From an uncultured Dehalococcoidales bacterium (GTDB lineage Bacteria > Chloroflexota > Dehalococcoidia > GIF9 > UBA5629), in NCBI GenBank assembly GCA_964437795.1, contig CAYTIC010000001.1, positions 86,864-150,863 on the forward strand: a stretch of DNA of 64,000 nucleotides. Reading direction: 5' to 3'. The translations under genes were made by a program, and so were the position numbers. Numbering within the stretch: position 1 is the stretch's first letter; each line of letters begins with the position of its first letter. Positions 52,092-55,497 of the stretch are shown piece by piece. Below the pieces are notes generated by a model. The model did no database searches. It saw only the letters and a list, made by a program, of their open reading frames with translations, and was not told where the DNA came from.

Positions 52092-52916
52092 TTACATATA
52101 GCCCAGGCCGCGCAAGCGTTTCATCATCTTTTCCTTGTCCTGCCGCCGGCCCGCTCTCTCCGTCGTGTGTTCAAGGTCCTGCTCCCAGGCAGGAACGCCC
52201 GGGGCCGCTATGGCGCTGGTGGTCTTTGCTCCCAGCGATCGATAGCCTTTTTCGTACAGTATGCAATAGGGTATTTTAAATACCTGATACGTGTTCCATA
52301 GCTCTCTCTCCGAGAAGTGCAGTATGGGCTTAATGCGCGTATGCTGGGGGATCAGGTAGGCCGCTTCTTTTACCTCGAAATAGTCGTCCTCGGCACGGGC
52401 GTTCTGCTCGTCCCTCCGCAAACCCTGGAAGATCGCCTTGACCCCGTTCTGTTCGATATACACGTTGAACATGACCGTTTTCATCAGGTGATTGCCGGTA
52501 TATGATTCAGCCTCGAAGGGAAATGTATCTTCCTTGTAGTCTATGCGCTTGAGTTCAGCCTGGTTTCTCTCGTTTAAATCCTTGACCTTGACGATGTTAT
52601 TCAGCTTGCCGCCGGCGGCCTTGATAACATCATCGTTGCGCATCCATGTCAGATCCAGCTTCCATTCCGCCGCATAGCGGTCCATGAAATCGTGTATCTC
52701 GTCGAAGGTATCGAACTCGTCTATCGTCATGACTTTGGGGACCTTTATTTTGTCCTCCTGGCAGACCTGGCGAATAATCCACAGCGCAAGCGTGCTGTCC
52801 TTGCCACCCGTCCAGGTGATAGCAAGATCATCCAGCTTAAACTTGCCGAATGACTCCCTGACTATTGCCTTCGACTTGTCGATCAGTCCCGCGCATTCTT
52901 TTTCCATACTGGCCAT
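52092..52916 (-). CDS. CysD-like protein (sulfate adenylyltransferase small subunit / PAPS-reductase fold). No adjacent CysN.
   Basis: PP-loop motif TWTGGKDST, central RRDEQNARAED (compare CysD ARRDEEKSRAKE), and a C-terminus TTERAGRR...KMMKRLRGLGY resembling the CysD C-terminus TTSERQGR...[10 protein letters not shown]. Confidence 0.65.
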   Translation of the reverse strand: MASMEKECAGLIDKSKAIVRESFGKFKLDDLAITWTGGKDSTLALWIIRQVCQEDKIKVPKVMTIDEFDTFDEIHDFMDRYAAEWKLDLTWMRNDDVIKAAGGKLNNIVKVKDLNERNQAELKRIDYKEDTFPFEAESYTGNHLMKTVMFNVYIEQNGVKAIFQGLRRDEQNARAEDDYFEVKEAAYLIPQHTRIKPILHFSERELWNTYQVFKIPYCILYEKGYRSLGAKTTSAIAAPGVPAWEQDLEHTTERAGRRQDKEKMMKRLRGLGYM

Positions 52917-52932
52917 TATCGGTCCCCCTTTT

Positions 52933-54138
52933 TTACTTTATCCATCTTTTTATCCTTGGTTTGAGCCTGGATTGCAGCCTTACTGTCTCCTTTGAAGACT
53001 GTGCAATATCGTGCAACTCACCCGGGTCGTCCTTGAGGTCATACAGCTCCCAGCGGTCCGGTTCCGCCCTGTAGATCAGCTTCATGTCGCCTTCCCGGCA
53101 GAAATACACATCCTTATTGATGTCGCCGCCTTTGACGCTTTTATTGTCGATGGCCTCACCGAAGGCGCCCTTTTCAACATATGCCCCCACGGGCAGCAGT
53201 GATTGTCCCTGGAAAGACGCCGCCGGATCGATACCGAAAAGGTGGAGAATAGTGGGCGGAATGTCTATGCTGCTGACCAGGCTGGAGCATACACCGCTTG
53301 AATCCGCCCCGTATATCAGCAACGGGACATCGATCAATTCCGCATACAGCTTGTCGTCGTGCGACAGCCCGCCGTGCTCGTTAAACTCATCCCCGTGGTC
53401 GCTGGTCATGATGACGGTGGTGGAATCGAGTATATGCAAATCCTCAAGCGATTTAAATAACGACTGTACGTAAGAATCCACCTCGCGGACGTGCACGTCA
53501 TACAGCCGTTTCAGCAGTGTTACCCTGGCGGGATCCGAGACGTCCCTCTTGAGCAGAGTATCCTCAAACAGCGCATACATCTCGTCCTGGCTGATCTTAA
53601 TTTCGGGGTCTACCATGTCTACATAGCTTCTTTCCGGCATATAAGGCTCATGCACGTCCATGTAATGAAGCCATAAAAAGAACGGAGCATGGTCTTTCTT
53701 CTTTACATAGGACGAAAGCCACTGCACTACCTTGTCATTGATCGTGTAACCCCGCACATATGACAGGCGTTCATCTTCGAGATCGTCGTCCAGGGAGTCA
53801 TAGAACACGTCCCATCCCCGGTCCCAGCCCAGCACGGAGCTGCAATAGGGATTGGAATGGAACCCGGCGGTGTATATGCCGGCTTTTTGCAGTACCTCCG
53901 ATACTATGGAGCGCCGGGGCGCCAAACCTTCGGGCTTACCGTAATCCAGGTAGTACCCCGAGCACAATATGGCGGGAAACGACGCCTGGGTATAAGGACC
54001 GGCGCTCTGGCTCCCGGTAAATACTATGCTGCGGTCTTTGAGGGAGTCGACGAACGGGGTTAATCCCCTGGTATTACCATACAGCCCGAATACATCCTTC
54101 CGGGTTGCATCCAGTGTAATCAAGACAACGTTTTTCAT
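52933..54138 (-). CDS. sulfatase-family (alkaline-phosphatase superfamily) protein, cytoplasmic, lacking the C/S-x-P-x-R formylglycine motif
   Basis: N-terminal VVLITLDATRKDVFGLYGN metal-binding motif. No signal peptide. The expected CxPxR position reads FTGSQSAGPYTQASF. Confidence 0.65.
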   Translation of the reverse strand: MKNVVLITLDATRKDVFGLYGNTRGLTPFVDSLKDRSIVFTGSQSAGPYTQASFPAILCSGYYLDYGKPEGLAPRRSIVSEVLQKAGIYTAGFHSNPYCSSVLGWDRGWDVFYDSLDDDLEDERLSYVRGYTINDKVVQWLSSYVKKKDHAPFFLWLHYMDVHEPYMPERSYVDMVDPEIKISQDEMYALFEDTLLKRDVSDPARVTLLKRLYDVHVREVDSYVQSLFKSLEDLHILDSTTVIMTSDHGDEFNEHGGLSHDDKLYAELIDVPLLIYGADSSGVCSSLVSSIDIPPTILHLFGIDPAASFQGQSLLPVGAYVEKGAFGEAIDNKSVKGGDINKDVYFCREGDMKLIYRAEPDRWELYDLKDDPGELHDIAQSSKETVRLQSRLKPRIKRWIK

Positions 54139-54168
54139 AGTGATAATTGATTGAAAAAGGGGCCGGAC

Positions 54169-55497
54169 TTAATATCCCAGCCGTTTCATCCTTGTTTCCA
54201 TCTTCTTCTTTTTATCGGCGCTGCTTGCTGCCGGACGTGCTGCCTGTGTTGCAGGGGCAGACTGGTCGGTGGCTATTTCGCTGGAGGCCTTGCCCTTCAC
54301 CAGCGTCCCGGCCGTGCTGCCGGAAATCGGCCTTGCCTGGGGGTTGAACGCCTCCGGCCCGTACAGCCTGTTCCACATGTCGAGTTTTTCCGAGTCAAGC
54401 TTTCTGCCCTGCAGTCCCGGGTAGTCCGGATCATAGCGGTGGCAGCGGAATGTGCAGTTGCTCAGGCCGTAAGGTGAAAGGGTATCCCTGTGGTTATAGA
54501 AAGGCACTATATATTCCCAGACGATTTCGCCTGTGGTGGTAACTTCGAAGAAACGCCCCATCCCGCCTTCGCACACCAGCGTATTGCCGTTGGGCAGCCG
54601 TTCACAGCCGCCGATATAGGTCGTATTGAAATCTACGGGGTTCTCTTCCCTGAACTCCCACTCGACCTCGTTGGTTTTGGGGTTCACTTCAACGACGCGG
54701 CTGCCGTCCGGCGGGAAGTAATCAACGTTGTACCTGTTGTTATTGAGCACCAGTATGTTGCCGTTATCCAGCAGCGTGGGGTTGTGCGGCATAGAGAGGA
54801 AGCCTTTTCCCCAGCGCCACTTGAAATCGCCGGAACTCCTGTCGATGATAAAAAGGTTGTCGCAGCCGAAAGAACATAACATGATGTCGCCGTTGGGCAA
54901 TTCCTCGAGTGAATTGAGGCCCACCCATGCCAGGCGCATCTGCAGCGGCGCGAAACAATCGAGCTCGAGGTCGAAGTGCTGATAACCCAGCCATTCCCAG
55001 GCTATTTTGCCCTGCGGGGTGATCTCCTGTATTACGTTGCCGTGAAGAGGTATGTCAATGCCGAGGATGCCTTTAGGAGACACGCCGCCCTGCACTTTGG
55101 CGGCTATTTCTTCCGGAATCGGGACGTACTTCATGATAAGCGTATTGCCGTTCTTGCTGCGCTTGCGATCATGGGCGTCCATGTTTTCATCCTCGTATTT
55201 CCAGACCACATTGCCGTCCCAGTCCAGTTCAACGACGCGTTTTGCCACAGTCGGTATCGATGAAGGAGGCGCTCCCACGTCATCCAGGGCACACAGGATA
55301 TTCCCGTTGGGAAGCAGGTCCGCATGCAGGCGCACCCACCCCGGCAGTTTCCAGCGGTGAACGAAACGTCCCTGCATATCGATCAGCCAGGTATTGCCCG
55401 GTACCTGTGTCATTGGGCTGAACAACGTGAAGCCGGGATATGCTTTGTGTGGTTTATACTCGGTAACCGATTGTAATGCTCTTCTTGCGGATGGCAT
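54169..55497 (-). CDS. arylsulfotransferase (ASST)-like beta-propeller protein with a CysD-like C-terminal tail
   Basis: Repeated NGN[IT]L / DxDGN blade motifs (LPNGNILC, DWDGNVVW, KNGNTLIM, LDNGNILV, LPNGNTLV). A low-complexity linker precedes the terminal ...KKKKMETRMKRLGY. Confidence 0.5.
   Translation of the reverse strand: MPSARRALQSVTEYKPHKAYPGFTLFSPMTQVPGNTWLIDMQGRFVHRWKLPGWVRLHADLLPNGNILCALDDVGAPPSSIPTVAKRVVELDWDGNVVWKYEDENMDAHDRKRSKNGNTLIMKYVPIPEEIAAKVQGGVSPKGILGIDIPLHGNVIQEITPQGKIAWEWLGYQHFDLELDCFAPLQMRLAWVGLNSLEELPNGDIMLCSFGCDNLFIIDRSSGDFKWRWGKGFLSMPHNPTLLDNGNILVLNNNRYNVDYFPPDGSRVVEVNPKTNEVEWEFREENPVDFNTTYIGGCERLPNGNTLVCEGGMGRFFEVTTTGEIVWEYIVPFYNHRDTLSPYGLSNCTFRCHRYDPDYPGLQGRKLDSEKLDMWNRLYGPEAFNPQARPISGSTAGTLVKGKASSEIATDQSAPATQAARPAASSADKKKKMETRMKRLGY

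Follow-up and report, generated by a model that had tools for sequence, protein, structure and literature searches.

The C-terminal arm of CysH moves into the nucleotide-sulfate site, and a cysteine on it holds the covalent sulfo-intermediate. Canonical CysD ends in GYF, and we know of no sulfotyrosine there. Bacterial ASTs use a ping-pong mechanism through a sulfo-histidine, and they sulfate tyrosine, tyrosine peptides, and proteins (PMC13426309). A 64,000-nucleotide stretch of DNA from an uncultured Dehalococcoidales bacterium (contig CAYTIC010000001.1; hereafter the window, whose positions serve as coordinates) encodes relatives of CysD and of the ASTs that share a C-terminal tail ending in Leu-Gly-Tyr (LGY). 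A literature search found no account of this tail.

The CysD-like protein (52092..52916, minus strand; 274 aa) is a PP-loop protein of the PAPS_reduct family (PF01507, 85.3 bits), and it scores below every NCBIfam CysD and CysH cut-off. Its Foldseek matches include FMN adenylyltransferases, APS/PAPS reductases, and CysD (1zun). It shares the superfamily PF01507 with CysH/APR (...ECG[LI]H), and in both a conserved ER.GR precedes a C-terminal segment that is mobile (alignment to 4bwv). The ERaGRrQ of its arm aligns with ERSGRFQ of APS reductase 4bwv, and the two arms are positionally homologous. Unlike CysH/APR, however, its arm ends in LGY[MFW] rather than ECGLH, the catalytic Cys and the Fe-S cysteines are missing, the PP-loop (TGGKDS, invariant) is intact, and the LGY arm also occurs in trans on other proteins, which to our knowledge is not the case for CysH. 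Homology to CysD includes the C terminus, where the CysD-like protein and E. coli CysD share ER.GR..D...M.....GY[FM]. Resemblance to CysD-CysN extends to an obligatory partner protein encoded next door and to a natural GTPase-PAPS_reduct fusion in the CysD-like clade (P0339). The scores of the CysD-like protein nevertheless fall well short of the CysD model cut-offs (74.8 versus 195 and 47.8 versus 396.6). It has neither of the two insertions of CysD but does have a separate one, and it is paired not with CysN but with a sulfatase-family protein. In most cases Sat is encoded nearby, which would make another ATP sulfurylase superfluous.

The ASST-like protein (54169..55497, minus strand; 442 aa) is a six-bladed beta-propeller that exceeds the cut-offs of PF14269 (48.3 bits) and PF05935 (43.2 bits). 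It shares its fold, Pfam families, and presumed catalytic His with described enzymes (3elq; Cpz4-type PF14269; 9kf6), and the sulfation of Tyr in peptides and proteins by known ASTs is a further likeness. The family profile matched PDB 9kf6 (E = 7e-15), entitled 'Sulfotransferase', as well as E. coli ASST 3elq, in which the region of His436 lines up with H238; the presumed catalytic His238 was conserved in 28 of 31 tailed ASSTs. Canonical ASSTs are periplasmic, whereas no signal peptide was evident in the ASST-like protein; the N-terminal sandwich domain found in E. coli ASST is also missing from it (442 versus 571 aa). Its relatives differ further in being encoded with Sat or AprBA and a PP-loop enzyme, in carrying the LGY tail, and in often forming pairs of a tail-less and a tailed protein, some of which are fused.

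Features and conservation of the LGY tail

The CysD-like protein ends in ...TTERAGRRQDKEKMMKRLRGLGYM, its arm being ERAGRRQDKEKMMKRLRGLGYM (52095..52160, minus strand). The ASST-like protein ends in ...ADKKKKMETRMKRLGY, where the tail, DKKKKMETRMKRLGY-COOH (54172..54216, minus strand), follows a disordered, low-complexity, flexible linker (PEAFNPQARPISGSTAGTLVKGKASSEIATDQSAPATQAARPAASSA; 54217..54357, minus strand) that varies in sequence and length among homologs. Only these two proteins carried the motif within the window. Tails were scored with a position matrix for which 103 distinct tails were used, all from ASST-like or NPP-like proteins and none from CysD-like ones. R(-6), L(-2), G(-1), and Y(0) were invariant in this matrix and positions -9 and -5 were hydrophobic; the Tyr, present in 103/103 client tails, was also found in all CysD-like tails. 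The CysD-like tail scored 27.2 bits, a value reached by none of the other 10,002 background C-terminal windows and by 3 of 1.34 million internal windows. The best background C terminus (22.0 bits) itself proved to be a genuine tail carrier. The ASST-like tail of the window scored 39.1 bits. The first 85 loci contain 6,554 ORFs, of which just 22 ended in GY, GYM, or GYF, and 15 of the 22 were module members.

The similarity between the two tails, proposed in a preliminary description of this DNA, is real and lies far beyond chance. That the shared endings are coincidental Lys/Arg-rich C termini on functionally unlinked proteins is an explanation to which we give practically no credence. The motif is short and its flanks are of low complexity, but we consider chance refuted by the background matrix statistics, by conservation and locus counts, and by the co-occurrence test that ties the tail to its gene neighborhood (below). 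The same description had likened both tails to the conserved C terminus of bacterial CysD. This stood for the CysD-like protein, by homology, but not for the ASST-like tail: the E. coli CysD tail scored -12 bits in the ASST/NPP matrix, a score equaled by 2% of background windows, and the ASST-like tail therefore resembles that of the CysD-like subfamily rather than that of canonical CysD. Conservation in orthologs was borne out. Among the best 120 homologs of each protein, LGYM formed the C-terminal end of 120/120 CysD-like proteins (77-96% identity) and [LIMVTY]GY that of 82/120 ASST-like proteins.

Through the wider CysD-like clade, ER.GR..DKE..M..LR.LGY[MFW] was retained down to ~28% identity. 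In AlphaFold2 (AF2) models, the arm formed a helix (residues 252-270) with a pLDDT of only 48-62 and was therefore considered mobile. The ASST-like propeller was modeled with pLDDT > 90, the linker with 47-56 (residues ~390-410), and the tail as a helix (residues 428-439) with ~70; in this monomer model the tail helix could equally be packing against its own propeller. A CysD-like subclade encoded beside Sat and a distant propeller kept its own tail, with trans tails in 0/7 loci with good flanks, and the arm therefore has a function in cis.

Tail-bearing proteins and the sulfatase-like/CysD-like pair

Between the CysD-like and ASST-like genes lies a gene for a sulfatase-family (alkaline-phosphatase superfamily) protein of 401 aa (52933..54138, minus strand; PF00884, 140.7 bits). 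It lacks the formylglycine motif, with T-Q-A-S-F in place of the C/S-x-P-x-R of sulfatases (alignment to 5g2v), and 'GPYTQA[SA]FP' was kept in 46/47 core homologs. Sulfatase-family and NPP-like members alike have Thr in the formylglycine position, which fits sulfuryl chemistry less well than phosphoryl or nucleotidyl chemistry. In most loci the sulfatase-like gene is directly upstream of the CysD-like gene, and other lineages encode sulfatase or Phosphodiest domains fused to PAPS_reduct and followed by LGY[MF], in chains of ~500-850 aa. These single-chain fusions mark the sulfatase-like/CysD-like core as a physical unit. Identity across loci was 63-96% for the core and 35-58% for the other tailed proteins, a difference that reads as a hub-and-client pattern.

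The LGY tail is not confined to two proteins: as a portable module, it occurs near this core on at least five classes of protein. Its carriers are ASST-like proteins, NPP-like PF01663 proteins (6 loci), a second PF00884 paralog (6 genes, in the form ..RL..LGY plus 2-3 residues), a double ASST of 789 aa, and a MarR subfamily in which 50/50 homologs at ≥59% identity ended in [LIVS]GY. The tailed MarR genes are divergent from SBP-DctQM-ASST-Sat-sulfatase-like-CysD-like operons; such a tail on a transcription factor agrees with a docking or sensing role but not with a purely catalytic relay. The proposed functional link between the CysD-like and ASST-like proteins was strengthened by gene neighborhood. 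All 3 tailed ASST-like genes had a CysD-like neighbor, compared with 2 of 80 tail-less ones (78 without; Fisher p = 1e-4), and in both exceptional loci a different gene was tailed. Of 35 core-pair loci of ≥10 kb, 31 had one or more trans tails; none was found in four core-pair loci with good flanks (L104, L154, L160, and L162). One locus (L026) has a tailed ASST and a CysD-like gene without the sulfatase-like gene, and minimal loci consist of Sat, a propeller, and the CysD-like gene only. Sat flanked the core pair, before or after it, in 49/91 loci, AprA in 5/91, and both in 0/91. It is the sulfatase-like/CysD-like pair, rather than aprBA, with which the tail is associated.

In the window, the operon continues on the minus strand with aprB (51624..52076; TIGR02060, 199.6 bits, cut-off 135.65) and aprA (49721..51610; TIGR02061, 909.5 bits, cut-off 641.75), which encode the beta and alpha subunits of APS reductase. 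Also on this strand are genes for a QmoA-like flavoprotein with FAD and Fer4 domains (48434..49705), a QmoB-like protein with HdrA-like and FlpD/MvhD domains (46315..48471; PF02662, 127.6 bits, Pyr_redox_2, Fer4), and, in the place of QmoC, an HdrD-like protein with CCG domains (45139..46284; PF02754 twice, 101.6 bits, Fer4). The gene order at the qmoA-like gene recurs in three other loci (L006, L086, and L088). A LuxR-type response regulator encoded just upstream of the operon (55694..56395, minus strand; PF00072 and PF00196) may be its regulator; it has no LGY tail, and such regulators also adjoin related modules (L002 and L003). A divergent MFS transporter gene follows (56397..57821, plus strand; PF07690, 212 bits), whose product has similarity to organic-anion transporters (PF03137, 68 bits) and may import the substrate. 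TRAP or TTT transporters occupy the corresponding place in related loci (TRAP or TctC genes in L001-L005, L168, and L170).

Possible roles of the tail

We lean toward reading the LGY tail as a docking peptide that is portable between proteins and imitates the core enzyme's mobile C-terminal arm. It would form an amphipathic helix of the pattern hydrophobic-x-x-R-L-x-x-L-G-Y, with 0-3 further residues after the Tyr, and would mimic the arm of the CysD-like PP-loop enzyme. This enzyme and the sulfatase-family protein encoded just upstream would form a two-protein core, acting on the APS pool because its fixed neighbor is Sat or, in the window, AprBA with Qmo. Around the core, substrate-specific clients (cytoplasmic ASST-like sulfuryl transferases, NPP-like enzymes, the second sulfatase-family enzyme, and the MarR regulator) would bear the same peptide on a flexible linker. 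Each client tail would dock where the core's own arm binds, tethering the client and placing the invariant Tyr at the nucleotide-sulfate site. Co-occurrence points to the core as the receptor, and homology with CysH suggests that the CysD-like arm reaches the active site. The tail would thereby mark a set of cooperating enzymes, not described before, whose probable role is to transfer sulfate groups between APS and organic sulfate esters; the import transporters and the many ASST paralogs favor sulfate-ester harvesting. Counting against this reading are the loci in which trans tails were not found, the tailed ASST of L026 with no sulfatase-like gene beside it, the possible packing of the ASST tail helix on its own propeller, and the Thr of the sulfatase-family and NPP-like members.

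A speculative extension, which does not contradict docking and which we hold only tentatively, makes the tail a covalent swinging arm. The ASST sulfo-histidine would sulfate the invariant Tyr, or receive sulfate from it, and the transiently sulfated arm would enter the CysD-like site, where the sulfuryl group is exchanged with AMP/APS; the APS would then be reduced by AprBA (in the window) or converted by Sat. The Tyr invariance, the near-constant His238, the long disordered linkers, and the ping-pong chemistry and Tyr sulfation of bacterial ASTs (PMC13426309) are consistent with such an arm. So is the tail's location where CysH and APR have their arm, with its Cys-borne covalent sulfo-intermediate, and in the minimal loci the cis tail could itself serve. 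Against it, the tail also occurs on the MarR regulator and on Thr-type alkaline-phosphatase-superfamily enzymes, the intact PP-loop favors ATP/PPi chemistry over simple AMP-sulfotyrosine exchange, canonical CysD retains GYF without known sulfotyrosine, and, by estimate rather than computation, transfer from aryl sulfate to APS is uphill and would need tight pulling. Of the two roles put forward in the preliminary description, docking on a common surface and a part in sulfuryl or nucleotide chemistry, either may apply, and the sulfuryl relay onto AMP suggested there may operate. It is unlikely that the receptor lies elsewhere, with the tails self-associating as a helical bundle or docking-domain pair, or with all tailed proteins, the CysD-like protein among them as a client, serving some other hub, for instance Sat, AprBA, or a transporter. 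One amphipathic helix on all partners suits homotypic association, Sat is the commonest neighbor (49/91 loci), and a shared partner surface had been envisaged earlier. Yet Sat and AprBA substitute for each other across loci, and therefore neither is the universal receptor; a helix of 12-14 residues is short for a stable bundle, the four strictly invariant positions indicate a fixed pocket, and the CysD-like tail remains conserved even in those clades and fusions that showed no trans tails.

Still less probable is a modification switch, in which the tail Tyr, on the clients and on the CysD-like enzyme itself, would be adenylylated or modified in some other way by that enzyme and restored by the Thr-type alkaline-phosphatase-superfamily proteins, so as to tune enzyme activity and MarR repression. 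The intact PP-loop, the adenylyltransferases (FAD synthase/FMNAT) that are the nearest solved relatives, the phosphodiesterase-typical Thr nucleophile of the sulfatase-like, NPP-like, and second sulfatase-family proteins, and the tailed transcription factor would all agree with it, but it leaves the fixed Sat/AprBA neighborhood and the ASST-like sulfuryl transferases unexplained, and no member of this family is known to us to AMPylate proteins. We consider it very improbable that the tail is a membrane-targeting amphipathic helix of the MinD/FtsA type that holds the pathway enzymes at the membrane, close to the transporter and Qmo. In its favor, a flexible linker leads to a short, basic, amphipathic helix at the C terminus, and transporters and, in the window, Qmo are encoded nearby. 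Membrane-targeting helices, however, conserve composition and not sequence, whereas the LGY tail has four invariant positions across five protein families; many tails are Glu/Asp-rich (e.g., EEALKERLAHLGY), and a MarR repressor is among the carriers.

Other systems with a recruiting or reacting peptide

The docking peptide that we favor has partial parallels in TtuB-TtuA, ThiS/MoaD with ThiF/MoeB, and LysW, where the flexible C-terminal peptide of one protein enters the active site of another. TtuA (5gha), a PP-loop enzyme, was among the fold matches of the CysD-like protein and provides a precedent for such an enzyme accepting the C-terminal tail of another protein. Those carriers are small, dedicated proteins with a Gly-Gly or Glu end and carboxylate chemistry, whereas the LGY tail ends in Gly-Tyr, sometimes with 1-3 further residues, is found on full-size enzymes and a regulator, and mimics the receiver's own tail. 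The beta-clamp-binding motif, the clients of the SSB tail, and PKS/NRPS docking domains are similar in that one short motif, at the end of a disordered linker, recruits unrelated proteins to one partner. Their hubs belong to DNA metabolism or assembly lines, whereas here the putative hub is a metabolic enzyme that bears the motif itself.

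An APS reductase operon with ASST-like, sulfatase-like, and CysD-like genes

Eight minus-strand genes are arranged head to tail, 13-30 bp apart, at 45139-55497. They encode an ASST-like protein (54169-55497; PF14269/PF05935), a sulfatase-family protein (52933-54138; PF00884), a CysD-like protein (52092-52916; PF01507), AprB (51624-52076), AprA (49721-51610), a QmoA-like protein with FAD and Fer4 domains (48434-49705), a QmoB-like protein with PF02662, Pyr_redox_2, and Fer4 domains (46315-48471), and an HdrD-like protein with CCG domains (45139-46284). AprB and AprA scored 199.6 and 909.5, above their respective equivalog cut-offs of 135.65 and 641.75, which identifies them as dissimilatory APS reductase. 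The Qmo set comprises QmoA, QmoB, and the soluble HdrD-like CCG-domain protein, which replaces the membrane protein QmoC; the TTG start called for qmoB gives a 38-nt overlap with qmoA. A LuxR-type response regulator and a divergent MFS transporter of the organic-anion type are encoded upstream of the operon. No Sat, CysN, or Dsr genes were present among the window ORFs of at least 220 aa scanned by Pfam (~38 of 44), and neither these ORFs nor the operon encoded a GTPase, the kind of partner that CysN represents. The closest public locus, L006, from a MAG labelled Dehalococcoidia, has the identical gene order and an ASST-like protein 90% identical to that of the window.

Two nearby stretches (21535-44211 and 57859-60665) encode four acyl-CoA ligases and beta-oxidation-type enzymes, together with an Old-Yellow-Enzyme-type reductase, an Amidohydro_2 protein, and a URO-D family protein, suggesting that aromatic or fatty acid degradation is encoded around the sulfur operon. 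G+C is 0.43-0.47 at 4001-8000 and 36001-40000, compared with a window norm of ~0.55, and these stretches may be islands. Downstream of the region, the minus-strand gene at 60679-63078 encodes a 799-aa penicillin-amidase-family protein (PF01804, 664 bits) with no obvious link to the sulfur module.

The CysD-like and ASST-like proteins share a C-terminal peptide ending in Leu-Gly-Tyr plus zero to three residues (the LGY tail), and both C-termini read exactly as they were given in the preliminary description. The ASST-like protein passes its Pfam gathering scores (48.3 versus 27 and 43.2 versus 24.2). Region 435-526 of E. coli ASST (3elq) aligned to positions 234-318 of the ASST-like profile, and H238, invariant in both family alignments (A1 and A5), is the candidate equivalent of catalytic His436. 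This residue is kept in 28 of 31 tailed ASSTs, in 18 of 21 tail-less ASSTs near the sulfatase-like/CysD-like pair, and in all 75 other homologues; as far as sequence can tell, the retained catalytic-site candidates rule out that tailed ASSTs are dead enzymes. Canonical ASST is periplasmic (signal peptide, Dsb dependence) and has an N-terminal beta-sandwich domain, features that the ASST-like protein appears to lack: its N-terminus, MPSARRALQSVTEYKPHK, contains no hydrophobic stretch as judged by eye, and it has 442 aa versus 571 for ASST chains. AF2 predicted a confident propeller, a linker at ~390-410 with pLDDT 47-56, and a tail helix at 428-439 with pLDDT ~70. Many homologues with long linkers (P0017-P0045 and others) carry a second motif, E(S/E)KPSV(A/G)xP, 20-30 residues before the tail, in place of which the window protein has ARPAAS.

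The CysD-like protein matched PF01507 (PAPS_reduct) at 85.3 bits and has an intact PP-loop with an invariant TGGKDS. It falls below the cut-offs for CysD (NF003587, 74.8 versus 195; TIGR02039, 47.8 versus 396.6; NF009214, 51.9 versus 413) and for CysH/APS reductase (NF002537, 48.3 versus 154; TIGR00434, 39.6 versus 165.1; TIGR02055, 35.4 versus 235.3). Both CysD-specific insertions, located in E. coli around KNQRPELWHNYNGQINKG and AERPVLERDG...KKRMV, are absent, and a different insertion occupies residues ~98-126. The tail, which ends in RLRGLGYM, contains no Cys and does not provide the ECG[LI]H catalytic Cys of CysH/APS reductase. In CysH enzymes a Cys-bearing C-terminal arm swings into the active site; the ER.GR of the CysD-like protein aligned to ERSGRFQ of the APS reductase APR-B (4bwv), the segment before that arm. 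Fold neighbours are FMN adenylyltransferases, APS/PAPS reductases, CysD, and TtuA. The AF2 model has a core with pLDDT >90, with values of only 48-62 for residues 225-274 and a low-confidence helix at 252-270. Searching 1.84 billion representative proteins exhaustively yielded 1,307 relatives, and ER.GR..DKE..M..LR.LGY[M/F/W] is retained through the broad CysD-like clade, to ~28% identity. C52 and C218, which are invariant in the family down to 49% identity, could form a redox pair or a metal site.

Conservation and genomic context of the LGY tail

The tail is conserved in orthologues of both proteins. All of the 120 best CysD-like homologues (77-96% identical) terminate in ...ER.GRRQDKE..M.R[LM]R.LGYM, and 82 of the 120 best ASST-like homologues (42-90% identical) end in ...R[LM]..LGY-COOH after linkers that vary in length and composition. 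A position matrix was built from 103 distinct ASST-like and NPP-like tails, with CysD-like sequences excluded. R(-6), L(-2), G(-1), and Y(0) are invariant in it, and the hydrophobic positions -9 and -5 fall on one helix face. The CysD-like tail scored 27.2 bits on this matrix. The next best of 10,002 background C-terminal windows scored 22.0 bits and is itself a further tail carrier, and only 3 of 1.34 million internal windows reached at least 27.2 bits.

The preliminary description had likened both tails to the conserved C-terminus of CysD. This likeness holds for the CysD-like protein, whose end aligns with that of E. coli CysD, but not for the ASST tail: E. coli CysD scored -12 bits on the matrix, ruling out that the ASST tail is a copy of canonical CysD. 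Given these two scores, the ASST tail copies that of this particular CysD-like subfamily, and canonical CysD is related to it solely through the common descent of the CysD-like protein. At the DNA level, no signal of a recent tail duplication within the window was found beyond that expected from shared amino acids. Tyr is not obligatorily the last residue, since one to three residues follow it in CysD-like proteins and in the tailed second paralogue of the sulfatase family. Searches of the PDB with each tail alone as a single sequence gave no match at E up to 10, and when 51 diverse CysD-like tails were combined into a 24-column profile, only chance matches appeared, with no tailed chain among solved structures. 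The only solved CysD (1zun) matches the LGY tail weakly; its searched chain has 204 residues versus 325 in the deposited sequence, consistent with disorder in parts of the chain, possibly including the tail.

Using only similarity to the ASST-like protein, we retrieved 80 genomic loci and counted neighbours within 10 kb. Tail-less ASST homologues had no CysD-like or sulfatase-like gene in that range in 78 of 80 cases, whereas all three tailed homologues had such a neighbour (P = 1e-4); both tail-less exceptions share their locus with another tailed gene. A set of 80 metagenomic loci fetched by similarity to the CysD-like protein (63-96% identical) revealed a constant core, in which a ~400-aa sulfatase-family gene is followed directly by the CysD-like gene. 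Among the 91 loci holding a CysD-like gene (not de-replicated), the sulfatase-like partner was visible in 62, Sat was adjacent in 49, and at least one trans tail, on a protein other than the CysD-like one, occurred in 43. Loci of at least 10 kb with the core pair had a trans tail in 31 of 35 cases. AprA was adjacent in only five of the 91 loci, never with Sat. These counts rule out the idea, raised in the preliminary description, that tailed ASSTs might occur only next to aprBA; instead, an ASST with the tail is one that accompanies the sulfatase-like/CysD-like core. The module ordinarily includes Sat, and its linkage to aprBA-qmo is a rare variant; the presence of Sat in 49 loci argues against the CysD-like protein being simply a redundant ATP sulfurylase.

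TRAP or TTT transporters are common in core loci, and individual loci encode TauE-type permeases, LuxR-type regulators with GAF-domain histidine kinases, and GntR or TetR regulators. At L004:11981-12937 and L170:714-1787, genes for TauE/SafE-type anion permeases neighbour the CysD-like gene directly or at a short distance, which suggests that sulfite, sulfate, or a sulfated product is exported. One CysD-like subclade (L129-L133, L138, L143-L152, L155, and L159) is found beside Sat and a distant ~450-aa propeller with weak ASST/NHL matches and the C-terminus ..FIKNVMFNRV. Neither a sulfatase-like gene nor a trans tail was seen in the loci of this subclade, which may represent a minimal form of the system.

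One peptide marks a two-protein hub and its clients

The CysD-like gene is next to a sulfatase-family gene, where CysD would have the GTPase CysN. The encoded protein scored 140.7 bits with PF00884 and matched many sulfatase structures, yet it is far under the cut-offs of the NCBIfam sulfatase models. Its T-Q-A-S-F sits opposite S-G-P-S-R of 5g2v, so that the C/S-x-P-x-R formylglycine motif is absent, and PYTQA[SA]FP is kept in 46 of 47 core homologues. By this alignment, the protein is not a formylglycine enzyme, and it is probably not a hydrolytic sulfatase. Thr also occupies the nucleophile position in tailed sulfatase-family paralogues and NPP-like proteins. Phosphodiesterases and transferases of this superfamily typically use such a Thr nucleophile, and Thr-type chemistry cannot yet be fitted to a sulfuryl pathway. 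Outside the window, a sulfatase or Phosphodiest domain is repeatedly fused N-terminal to PAPS_reduct in single chains of ~500-850 aa ending in LGY[MF], and one member of the CysD-like clade is an EF-Tu-type GTPase fused to PAPS_reduct (fusion proteins P0248, P0259, P0284, P0286, P0299, P0318, and P0339). As Rosetta-stone evidence, the fusions indicate that the sulfatase-like and CysD-like proteins act as one unit.

Near this core, the LGY tail was found on five kinds of protein: ASST-like, double ASST, NPP-like, second sulfatase-family, and MarR. Tailed NPP-like enzymes (PF01663) occur in six loci; the one at L008:1474-2955, for example, ends in ...EEKVQSRLSALGY. Six tailed genes encode the second sulfatase-family paralogue (~420-466 aa), with two or three residues beyond the Tyr (...ERLRDLGYIQ, ...ERLRRLGYTTE). 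The products of two tailed MarR genes (L096:10210-10683 and L101:940-1434) are 45% identical, and genes of this MarR subfamily are divergent from operons of the order SBP-DctQM-ASST(tail-less)-ASST(tailed)-Sat-sulfatase-like-CysD-like(-TauE). All 50 database MarR homologues at 59% identity or more end in ...LG[ILMT]E[DEN][RQH]..[L][LIV]GY or a close variant; more distant MarRs lack the LGY tail.

Tail state follows phylogeny among ASST paralogues, agreeing between nearest neighbours in 53 of 57 cases. Adjacent ASST genes are ordered tail-less then tailed in 9 of 17 pairs and the reverse in one. The tailed double ASST (L163, 789 aa) resembles such a pair: compared with the adjacent genes in L099, its N-terminal half is closest to the tail-less and its C-terminal half to the tailed one (66-67% identity). 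The gene order and the fusion suggest that these pairs form heterodimers with a single tail.

One short motif is thus carried by several unrelated families that have one partner in common, the distribution of a hub-and-client system. The same peptide marks both the hub, a two-protein unit, and its clients, and the fixed neighbour of the hub is an APS enzyme, either Sat or AprBA. The module was present in MAGs whose labels include Dehalococcoidia, Desulfobacteraceae, Thermodesulfobacteriota, and Planctomycetota.

Possible roles of the tail and related systems

We propose that client tails dock on the core at the place where the core's own arm, the C-terminus of the CysD-like protein, binds. Docking would tether a repressor and a changing set of substrate-specific enzymes to one conserved centre, a pattern that fits the identities across loci of 63-96% for the core and 35-58% for the clients. 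Tails could instead bundle with each other or have another hub as receptor, which we regard as unlikely, or act as a modification switch, for example by Tyr adenylylation, for which we see very little probability. It is highly improbable that the tail is a membrane-targeting helix, and coincidence of the C-termini is scarcely credible.

Whether the invariant Tyr itself shuttles a sulfuryl group is speculative, a possible rather than a probable reading. ASTs use a sulfo-histidine and can sulfate Tyr peptides as well as proteins (PMC13426309), the candidate His238 is retained in tailed ASSTs, and the arm occupies the place of the carrier of the covalent sulfo-intermediate in CysH. Against such a shuttle, the PP-loop is intact, the alkaline-phosphatase-superfamily members are of the Thr type, a MarR is tailed, and GYF is kept in canonical CysD too. 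Taken to its full extent, with the LGY tail as a sulfotyrosine swinging arm, this reading is doubtful. Sulfate esters, aryl or other, would be imported, and cytoplasmic ASST-like enzymes would move their sulfuryl groups to the terminal Tyr; the arm would deliver these groups to the CysD-like/sulfatase-like core, and the core would hand them to AMP, forming APS without expenditure of ATP. This APS would be respired by AprBA-Qmo, as in the window, or made into ATP by reverse Sat, and the MarR regulator would sense flux through its own tail.

Concerning the direction of flux, the importers, multiple ASST paralogues, and substrate-type regulators lead us to favour harvesting of sulfate esters into APS, which AprBA would respire in the window and Sat would elsewhere convert to ATP and sulfate. 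The opposite flux, APS-dependent sulfation of imported phenols, is retained as an alternative. Uncultured Desulfatiglans-related bacteria and subsurface Dehalococcoidia encode sulfatases that could supply sulfate (PMC6129605).

These results define a widespread, unannotated module consisting of a transporter, ASST-like proteins, Sat or AprBA, a sulfatase-like protein without formylglycine, and a CysD-like protein. One portable peptide marks its members and offers a simple handle for finding all of them in a genome. It also offers a concrete biochemical hypothesis that can be addressed with a 15-residue peptide such as DKKKKMETRMKRLGY. In a large PAPS-reductase-family clade, CysD included, the C-terminus is conserved but unexplained, and the tail hints at what it may do. 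Sulfate reduction requires prior activation to APS, at the cost of ATP, and sediments hold a large pool of sulfur as organic sulfate esters. If the Tyr carries sulfate, it would be categorically new, the first protein-tyrosine-sulfate carrier, and the energy balance of reducing sulfate from esters would have to be revised; a sulfotyrosine arm would mean ATP-independent sulfate activation, a 'sulfate-ester respiration.'

Our literature search covered the CysD C-terminus, ASST with PAPS reductase, sulfatase, or aprBA, Dehalococcoidia aryl sulfotransferase, and bacterial sulfotyrosine; it brought up no account of the module, the LGY tail, or what the CysD C-terminus does. There are precedents for hub-and-client motifs at C-termini and for mobile catalytic arms. 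The new element is a metabolic enzyme with an arm that several enzyme families and a regulator mimic in trans. Within the core, the sulfatase-like protein would work with the CysD-like protein much as CysN works with CysD. For the clients, the precedent is the PP-loop enzyme TtuA, which accepts the C-terminal tail of its partner TtuB, and it fits the proposed docking of client tails on the core.
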